Below, in pieces: positions 954 through 1,592 of a DNA stretch of 32,000 nt. The stretch is taken from NCBI RefSeq assembly GCF_001598795.1, contig NZ_BCZP01000008.1, positions 120,001-152,000 of the forward strand, given 5' to 3'. Below the pieces are notes generated by a model, which was given only the letters and a program-made list of their open reading frames with translations, searched no databases and was not told the DNA's origin. The translations under genes were made by a program, and so were the position numbers. This DNA is from Delftia acidovorans NBRC 14950. GTDB lineage: Bacteria; Pseudomonadota; Gammaproteobacteria; Burkholderiales; Burkholderiaceae_C. How positions within the stretch are numbered: the first letter of the stretch is position 1; each line of letters begins with the position of its first letter.

Positions 954-1592
954 ATGAAAGGTTTGCTTGCTTTTTTCTTTACATTATTGATTGCGATTTT
1001 TCCCGGTGCCGTCCTTGCAAATGAAGAGGTCGTGCAGGTGAAAATATCCACCAATTTCAAAGGTGAGGTGGTGAAAAGAAGTGCCGTCGTAGGTTTGGGA
1101 GAATCGATAAAGCTCACATCCAGTCAAGGAGGAATGATTGTCGCCATAGAATATGTAATAAGAACTATTCAAGTGAATGGTCTTAAAAATTACAGCATAT
1201 CTGCGACTTTATATTCGGGTGTGGAGAGCGCTGAAGCCTGGTTGTCCAGGCGTGATGTTTTTGCGGTTGTTGAAAAATCAGTTCCTGCCTTTTTCAAATT
1301 GGATGATTCATCTGACGAGATGCAGGTCGAGGTGACCATCGCCGATATCCGTGAAGAAGAGGAATATTTGAAAAATATGCCTAGAAAAATTTGCGATTTG
1401 AGCTTGGAAAGTCCTAAGCTCCTGAAGTCTCAGACTGCATCAGGAACTTATGGCTGTTGTGATATCCGCTGCCAATCAGTTAATGGAACTTGTTGTGGCG
1501 CAATTATGTGCTGTCTCAGGGATCCAGATAGCTATCCTGCGTGGCAGCATGATATTGCTAATGATTGCTGCTGTTATCCACCTCAGTATTAA
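954..1592 (+). CDS. secreted hypothetical protein with an extremely cysteine-rich C-terminal tail (no family recognised)
   Basis: This is ORF 942..1592. I prefer the ATG at 954 because GGAGG lies at 944-948, 5 nt upstream. The N-terminus MKGLLAFFFTLLIAIFPGAVLA/NEE looks like a Sec signal peptide. The last ~50 residues, GCCDIRCQSVNGTCCGAIMCCLRDPDSYPAWQHDIANDCCCYPPQY, carry 10 Cys as CC, C, CC, CC, CCC. The gene is visibly AT-rich (about 40 percent GC by eye) in a GC-rich genome. Confidence 0.6.
   Translation: MKGLLAFFFTLLIAIFPGAVLANEEVVQVKISTNFKGEVVKRSAVVGLGESIKLTSSQGGMIVAIEYVIRTIQVNGLKNYSISATLYSGVESAEAWLSRRDVFAVVEKSVPAFFKLDDSSDEMQVEVTIADIREEEEYLKNMPRKICDLSLESPKLLKSQTASGTYGCCDIRCQSVNGTCCGAIMCCLRDPDSYPAWQHDIANDCCCYPPQY

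Follow-up and report, generated by a model that had tools for sequence, protein, structure and literature searches.

A mobile accessory gene of Delftia acidovorans and the small family of predicted exported proteins with a ten-cysteine tail to which it belongs

The DNA analyzed here is a stretch of 32,000 nucleotides from Delftia acidovorans NBRC 14950 (contig NZ_BCZP01000008.1, positions 120,001–152,000), referred to below as the window. Near its left end, on the forward strand, lies an open reading frame (ORF) of 212 codons (954–1592) that begins with an ATG at 954, ends with a TAA at 1590–1592, and is preceded by the Shine-Dalgarno sequence GGAGGA at 944–949, 4 nt 5′ of the start codon. The product is identical to WP_155294177.1, KFJ09362.1, and QQB51245.1, annotated as "hypothetical protein [Delftia acidovorans]"; the CoxI encoded in the window likewise equals its Delftia counterpart in every residue. 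The gene has a GC content of 42.6% (39.9% at third codon positions, GC3) and lies in a low-GC block at ~578–1675, whereas the remaining window has 66.7% GC and the neighboring genes have a GC3 of 70–84%. At such a composition, a 212-codon open frame would arise by chance with P ~1.5e-6. An earlier note, made from the sequence alone, had described an AT-rich orphan gene with its own Shine-Dalgarno sequence, and both composition and ribosome-binding site were as described; "orphan" was correct only in part, as a small family of homologues does exist. The gene and the sequences that accompany it are laid out as follows.

578–953, + strand: AT-rich non-coding region upstream of the gene, which travels with it and is homologous in other loci
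954–1019, + strand: signal peptide, residues 1–22 (MKGLLAFFFTLLIAIFPGAVLA / NEE), by inspection and hydropathy scan
1020–1346, + strand: N-terminal domain, residues 23–131, predicted all-beta from AlphaFold2 and the alignment
1347–1448, + strand: acidic linker, residues 132–165, which includes the acidic stretch ADIREEEEYLKN and has a low predicted local distance difference test score (pLDDT)
1449–1592, + strand: Cys-rich tail, residues 166–212 plus the stop codon (YGCCDIRCQSVNGTCCGAIMCCLRDPDSYPAWQHDIANDCCCYPPQY), from the alignment
1593–1675, + strand: conserved 3′ flank of the module, with the remnant of an intrinsic terminator

The predicted signal peptide has a basic n-region, a hydrophobic core (Kyte-Doolittle 10-residue maximum 2.9), and a V-x-A cleavage site, and the same two approaches placed an equivalent N-terminal signal in every branch of the family, in all nine aligned members. 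The Sec signal AVLA/NEE had been read in the same way by the earlier note; no lipobox is present in the Delftia protein. The following ~110 residues contain no recognizable motif, as had also been remarked. With five sequences, AlphaFold2 gave a poor model (pLDDT 54), but after addition of two remote relatives (7-sequence alignment) the predicted TM-score (pTM) was 0.68, and residues 25–130 were modeled with pLDDT 68–90 as eight consecutive hairpin-connected strands. G37, G49, and W96 in this domain are invariant in the aligned members. An outer-membrane beta-barrel was considered for the domain and rejected: the strands are not consistently amphipathic, and the protein ends in a soluble Cys tail instead of a C-terminal beta-signal. 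The acidic linker was confirmed as well. It carries Cys147 (codon 1392–1394), invariant in nine of nine aligned sequences; the earlier note counted the ten Cys of the tail correctly and left this eleventh one unmentioned. The tail itself is 47 residues long, with 10 Cys within its last 45 in the pattern CC/C/CC/CC/CCC. It was modeled with pLDDT <50, with short strands placed at 168–171 and 177–181. Five adjacent Cys-Cys steps appear in 1.3% of shuffles of the tail itself; the strong evidence against a chance pattern is the invariance of the Cys across homologues at 21–30% identity.

These homologues are few. A word-indexed search of 5.8 billion proteins found five clusters only, at 67–97% identity, and an exhaustive HMMER profile scan of 1.84 billion representatives gave 3 matches and was the source of the remote proteins P0006 and P0007 (25–30% identity). 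In all, 7 clusters were counted among the 5.8 billion proteins. Contig scans added two further branches, one on an IMG/VR viral contig (locus L025; 35-kb IMGVR_UViG_3300019124_000096) and one in JGI metagenomes (L026/L027). The copy in L025 is homologous over both domains (hhalign probability 97.6%, E = 3e-12; BLASTP against P0006, E = 1e-14). Together, the family comprises five deep branches at 21–30% identity with a fixed plan of ~210 amino acids (aa), in which the signal peptide is followed by a beta domain, then by a linker that carries a single Cys, and finally by the ten-Cys module at the C terminus. The tail core in all branches reads CC-x3-C-x6-9-CCGA[IV]xCC-variable loop-(C)CC-x(1-2)-P, in which CC168/169, C173, CC180/181-G-A, CC186/187, and CC206/207 never vary. 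The number of tail Cys is exactly 10 throughout, at a density of 21–30% of tail residues, and four of the five branches have a mature protein with 11 Cys. Entries of the close branch come from D. acidovorans, D. tsuruhatensis, D. lacustris, and unclassified Delftia, and all read "hypothetical protein". No relative turned up in scans of the GTDB representatives, but named Delftia genomes carry the gene, so this is not evidence of absence; complete D. lacustris and D. tsuruhatensis genomes have it, and the scans therefore either gave false negatives or covered representatives without the gene. A profile of the tail only, run against the 5.8-billion set, returned one candidate and did not recover its own family, and hence is uninformative on tail-only relatives.

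No described family was matched. The window protein was unmatched in Pfam and NCBIfam, and Pfam, PHROGs, and PADLOC searches with all family members returned noise only; the best PADLOC match (E = 0.0016) concerned one member and pointed to no consistent defence family. The PDB gave no match by sequence, with the single protein, or by profile. Foldseek searches of the PDB and BFVD with the better AlphaFold model gave none at E ≤ 0.001, with TM mostly <0.3; the top BFVD match had TMq 0.33 / TMt 0.51 and E = 1.7e-3. A tblastn search of isolated phages and plasmids yielded no relative. In literature searches, no mention of the accession numbers turned up, and nothing relevant was found on analogous Cys-rich exported prophage proteins. 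The earlier note had been unable to place the protein in any family, which is borne out by Pfam, NCBIfam, PHROG, PADLOC, and the PDB alike. Judged by these comparisons, the family is very small and previously undescribed, and its tail signature lets WP_155294177, WP_156517033, WP_158528231, and their relatives be grouped.

The gene is under selection. Among four Delftia-type alleles, the ratio of nonsynonymous to synonymous divergence (dN/dS) is 0.11–0.18, where dS reaches 1.7. Constraint is strongest in the tail (dN/dS 0.03–0.08 between closer alleles), and the beta domain lies at 0.07–0.23. One alternative is that 954–1592 is a decaying, non-functional ORF in foreign junk DNA, an outcome that, by the earlier note, would speak against function if homologues in close relatives were frameshifted or absent. 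The AT-rich composition, the insertion sequence (IS) debris alongside, and the loss of the terminator in the window fit such a view, as do database entries that are 5′-truncated or IS-interrupted. Individual strains do hold broken copies, and some entries are 5′-truncated calls; in L014, an intact IS3-family transposase gene (HTH_Tnp_1 + HTH_21 + rve; 9190–10688) follows codon ~161, and the entire Cys tail is lost. The 212-codon frame, however, is kept across alleles at dS up to 1.7 with dN/dS of 0.11–0.18, which argues against a decaying ORF, and the architecture and all of the Cys are kept in five branches at 21–30% identity. As a general explanation, decay is refuted by these comparisons, and we regard its probability as close to negligible; the substitution pattern identifies 954–1592 as a functional D. 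acidovorans gene under purifying selection.

The surroundings of the gene were compared across loci. In the window and in the Delftia loci L001–L008, the order is GST, the gene, a variable insert, PpoB2, tyrosinase, a WD40/IPTL-CTERM gene (in L001–L008), tRNA-Arg, and TamB. The neighbors in the window are as follows.

1640–2230, − strand: degraded, frameshifted DDE (rve) transposase, IS481-like, with a three-frame translation ...LIDNGAAFWSKDF...TNGKAERFIQSALREWAY... containing stops
2229–2888, − strand: 219-aa protein without a Pfam match, divergent from the 180-aa helix-turn-helix (HTH) gene
3022–3564, + strand: 180-aa double-HTH regulator (Xre/HTH_3, weakly MqsA-antitoxin-like)
3584–4342: PpoB2, in an operon with tyrosinase
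4352–5959, − strand: tyrosinase, 2.76 kb from the gene
6207–6281, − strand: tRNA-Arg(CCT), found with ARAGORN, an integration hotspot that bounds the variable region containing the gene

Between the window and L001–L008, the flanks are 90–96.5% identical, whereas the AT-rich module is only ~80% identical. In comparisons of the window with L001, L003, and L004, dS is 0.50 for the gene, against 0.20 for GST, 0.10 for the 219-aa gene, 0.08 for tyrosinase, 0.07 for TamB, and 0.04 for PpoB2, which indicates either a deeper or separate history for the gene or faster silent-site evolution. The insert between the gene and PpoB2 varies by locus and holds either an 88-aa ORF or the pair of the 219-aa and Xre-HTH genes. 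The pair is found in the window and in L003/L004, and other Delftia loci instead have the 88-aa ORF or a truncated HTH gene; its role could be that of a toxin-antitoxin pair or of a repressor cassette. The transposase remnant (Pfam rve, E = 5e-9; rve_3, E = 3e-10) is absent from L001–L008.

The tRNA-Arg gene is a recurrent landmark. Its 3′ 25 nt are repeated beside an integrase gene in L003 (11211–11235), and L010/L011 carry a phage-type integrase, different from that of L003, abutting the same tRNA-Arg site (L010 1477–1558). About 276 bp past the gene in L010 lie 68 bp of the sequence found downstream of tRNA-Arg in the window, together with 15 nt of the tRNA 3′ end; this stretch sits between the gene and the integrase, and the tyrosinase cluster is absent there. 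Elsewhere the company changes again. The neighbor in L009 is a sigma-54 activator, P0006 has three different upstream genes, and L027 has a sigma-54 regulator, SDR, patatin, TPR debris, and a lipid-A acyltransferase. No maturase, exporter, immunity, metal-regulator, or thiol-disulfide gene recurs among the neighborhoods compared. The GC content of the gene is below that of its host everywhere: 41–46% against 60–67%, 57% against 72.5% in L027, and 64% against 68.5% in the phage copy. Around the module, neither insertion scars nor flanking repeats came to light beyond chance 12-mers. These comparisons mark the gene as a solitary, horizontally mobile accessory gene whose neighbors change with the lineage; its mobile, phage-linked nature was overlooked by the earlier note.

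The noncoding parts of the module travel with the gene to different extents. The region 578–953 is homologous (about 78–80%) in L001–L008 and L010–L013, whereas L009 shares only 868–953. This 375-bp upstream region has a GC-richer block at ~655–760 and a conserved TAGAAT, which forms part of a sigma-70-like site at 609–637 (TTTACA-17-TAGAAT); such matches are no commoner than chance (3 found, 2.2 expected). Rfam had no match in 300–2300, and the 5′ leader fold was not significant (z = −1.27), with covariation drawn from 4 sequences only. After the stop codon, L010 and L009 have an intact terminator, GCCTGG-GCAT-CCAGGC followed by a T-run. In the window, the stop codon is followed by ACCTGGACATCGAAGC and then by unrelated sequence, the terminator having been lost at the junction with the IS remnant.

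The tyrosinase gene was placed 2.8 kb away by the earlier note, in agreement with the measured 2.76 kb, and its proximity had suggested to that note a cross-linkable adhesive or structural tail. In the fuller form of this idea, the gene product is a substrate or partner of the enzyme, with Tyr and Cys of the tail cross-linked (cysteinyl-DOPA) into an adhesive or structural material. The tyrosinase-PpoB2 operon does lie 2–2.8 kb from the gene in the window and in L001–L008, and the Delftia alleles have Tyr beside the Cys clusters. All of these co-occurrences, however, are in closely related Delftia genomes with flanks that are 90–96.5% identical. There is no tyrosinase neighbor in L009, in L010/L011, in the P0006 loci (L015–L017), in L025, or in L027, and in L010 the gene stands directly beside the tRNA-Arg attachment site with no cluster between. 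Tail aromatics are missing in two branches; thus, neither the association nor the tail Tyr on which cross-linking would depend is conserved. The gene is convergent with the PpoB2-tyrosinase operon and not co-transcribed with it, and variable inserts (the IS remnant, the 219-aa and HTH pair, or the 88-aa ORF) lie between, so the co-occurrence across genomes that the earlier note proposed to look for amounted to neither conserved linkage nor co-orientation. In addition, the dS of the gene is 6–12× that of tyrosinase and PpoB2, which implies differing histories. The likeness to a ppoB-type operon, with its membrane copper chaperone and tyrosinase, comes down to physical neighborhood in Delftia: the strand is opposite, the divergence discordant, and the link absent in the non-Delftia branches and in L010. 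Since both the gene and the operon lie in a variable region beside tRNA-Arg, their adjacency is coincidental; the cross-linking reading is largely refuted, and we consider it very improbable. The proximity of these genes in Delftia had invited a connection to tyrosinase and copper chemistry, which proves to be wrong. In L001–L008, a 690-aa WD40 beta-propeller protein with IPTL-CTERM is encoded after tyrosinase; it is missing from the window (5960–6206), where tyrosinase is followed directly by tRNA-Arg and TamB.

The L025 copy places the family on a phage. This contig encodes a portal protein (phrog_68), large terminase, scaffold (phrog_73), major capsid protein (phrog_70), small terminase (phrog_74), head-tail adaptor (phrog_71), and endolysin, a P2-type head module. 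The family gene directly adjoins the portal gene, is convergent with it, and is followed by a strong intrinsic terminator, GGGGAGGGC-AAC-GCCCTCCCC-TTTATTTTT. In P2-like phages, the cos-proximal region from gpA to the portal gene gpQ is a hotspot for foreign genes and holds old and tin in P2, plus many defence systems (PMC9122126). The stretch from cosL to the gpQ homologue likewise picks up foreign genes, such as ctx in phiCTX (PMC5694545), and among the references of the same paper is a chapter that deals with how unusually AT-rich the P2 conversion genes are. The L025 copy resembles these morons (P2 old and tin, phiCTX ctx) in standing beside a portal (gpQ-type) gene of a P2-type head module and in being a stand-alone gene with its own terminator, and the AT-richness of P2 conversion genes relative to the host is seen in most family copies as well (PMC5694545). 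It differs in that old, tin, and ctx have no sequence relationship to the family, whose product is predicted to be exported and is Cys-rich, and in that most family copies, including that in the window, are chromosomal and outside any recognizable prophage. An accessory phage slot is occupied by the L025 copy and not by the window copy, which is chromosomal with an integrase, IS, and tRNA as the only mobility hallmarks nearby. A distinct base composition is true of the family copies, the difference being small in the phage (64% against 68.5%). As for an own transcription unit, terminators are present in L025 and L010/L009 and lost in the window, and promoter-like sites are at chance level.

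Taken together, we tentatively favor, at a little under an even chance, a composite reading in which a moron-type gene, mobile and accessory, encodes an exported protein that acts at the cell envelope and is probably stapled by disulfides. The protein would be exported by Sec and cut after VLA, and in the oxidizing periplasm the ten tail Cys could pair into five disulfides, by which a short beta-hairpin knob would be stapled. A packed disulfide fold is favored over a metal cluster because the number of Cys is even and invariant, a Gly-Ala is invariant, and hydrophobic residues lie between the Cys pairs. C147 would be free or engaged in an intermolecular or inter-domain bond. By analogy with lysogenic conversion, we propose that the product is a moron-type factor at the cell envelope, where the beta domain and the rigid knob might bind an envelope or extracellular target, for example in receptor masking or in the exclusion of phages or competitors. 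In the proposed model, it is not an enzyme, a metal store, or a tyrosinase substrate. Small, exported, single-gene envelope accessory proteins carried by phages include T5 Llp, phi80 Cor, and T4 Sp; the parallel is a functional analogy only. No sequence or structural similarity to them was detected, and the Delftia protein has no lipobox. A mobile accessory gene for an exported protein is of a familiar kind. The protein family with its ten-Cys module, by contrast, has not been described before, and no relatives of it could be detected.

Several observations weigh against this reading. The tail has an AlphaFold pLDDT <50, and the Cys total of 11 is odd. Just one of ~30 loci, L025, is demonstrably phage-borne, and its copy is at the very edge of the contig with a GC content near that of its phage, unlike the other copies; no phage structural genes lie near the Delftia locus. 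The higher dS of the gene might not stem wholly from allele exchange, since synonymous sites could be less constrained in a gene that is AT-rich and poorly expressed. Promoter-like matches at chance level leave the promoter putative, PADLOC defence families gave no match, and the step to an envelope-acting conversion factor is an analogy.

A bolder version of the envelope-acting proposal, which we consider unlikely, is that the tail is a new cystine-stapled mini-domain (five disulfides in 33–47 residues) on a novel beta domain and that the whole is a single-gene, periplasm-acting superinfection-exclusion or defence factor of phages and islands. If so, it would represent an envelope-level mechanism against phages or competitors that has no relation to the systems catalogued so far. 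Cytoplasmic defence systems make up most of the phage-borne accessory functions catalogued in the P2 hotspot. If the envelope reading is right, an exported, Cys-stapled protein points to conversion or exclusion at the level of the envelope; a compact disulfide-dense module would then be moved by temperate phages and genomic islands between GC-rich Proteobacteria, and the tail might offer a very stable small scaffold for protein engineering.

The strong constraint on the tail could also be read differently. The protein might be the precursor of a secreted toxin or antimicrobial, akin to the toxin or bacteriocin-like module on a prodomain that the earlier note had listed. The tail would be its active, disulfide-knotted part (defensin-, hepcidin-, or conotoxin-like), and the beta domain would serve as a carrier or prodomain from which it is freed once exported. 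No other region is as constrained as the tail (dN/dS 0.03–0.08), its Cys density is 21–30% with always 10 Cys, and the gene is mobile and strain-variable. The fold classes invoked share features with the family: granulins and hepcidin have CC doublets within 35–50 residues and short beta-hairpins, and the terminal C-G-x-CC-x-x seen in two branches recalls hepcidin. The family spacing (CC-x3-C-x6-9-CC-x4-CC-...-CC) and the number of Cys (10) differ from theirs, however, and the family module is borne by bacteria and phages and appended to a beta domain. A toxin would have a precedent in the ctx cytotoxin gene, which occupies the same P2 slot in phiCTX (PMC5694545). In six unrelated contexts, by contrast, no immunity, processing-protease, or dedicated exporter gene is conserved alongside, and the alignment contains no conserved cleavage motif between the domains. 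The N-terminal domain is itself under purifying selection, with G37, G49, and W96 invariant, which suggests that it is not a mere carrier. Finally, most branches have a net acidic tail, a property that antimicrobial peptides for the most part do not share. On balance, a toxin or antimicrobial precursor seems unlikely.

Another possibility, a form of which the earlier note had also raised, is a periplasmic metallothionein-like module with ten thiolates that bind soft metals (Cu(I), Au, Cd, Hg) outside the cytoplasm. The Cys density and the CC and C-x-x-x-C spacing recall metallothioneins, Delftia is a metal-associated genus, and the tails of P0006 and L025 are without aromatics and rich in Gly, Ser, Asn, and Asp. 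Like metallothioneins and the Csp copper storage proteins, the family tail is Cys-dense (21–30%) and of low complexity, with few aromatics in some branches. It departs from both in that the protein is predicted to be Sec-exported to an oxidizing compartment, is not a helical bundle, and comes without conserved metal-responsive genes. Export into a compartment that contains DsbA favors disulfides. No metallothionein, Granulin, Hepcidin, or any other Cys-rich Pfam family was found at E ≤ 10 with any member, nor a metallothionein-type profile in NCBIfam. Periplasmic Cu(I) is usually bound through His and Met, which the tail almost lacks. Neither a metal-sensing regulator nor an efflux pump, transporter, or chaperone is conserved nearby, the PpoB2 copper-chaperone neighbor included, and the invariant Gly-Ala and the hydrophobic residues between the Cys pairs suggest a packed fold. 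The Cu(I)/thiolate role suggested by the earlier note thus found no backing in family matches, in ligand content, or in conserved metal genes, and we judge metal binding to be quite unlikely.

Two further features of the module were observed in the sequence comparisons. A T6–T7 homopolymer lies at 969–983, within the signal-peptide codons, and all Delftia-type loci have it in this position. It is precisely here that several database entries diverge (MFFFFVIL... vs MKSLLVFFFVIL...) or else start at an internal GTG; such entries could be slippage or pseudogene variants, or sequencing errors. Phase variation at the tract was considered and set aside because the tract is short and the evidence weak. 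At the left edge of the AT-rich module, the window (~580) and the L001–L008 lineage (L001 9491–9649) are distinguished by a 158-bp indel.

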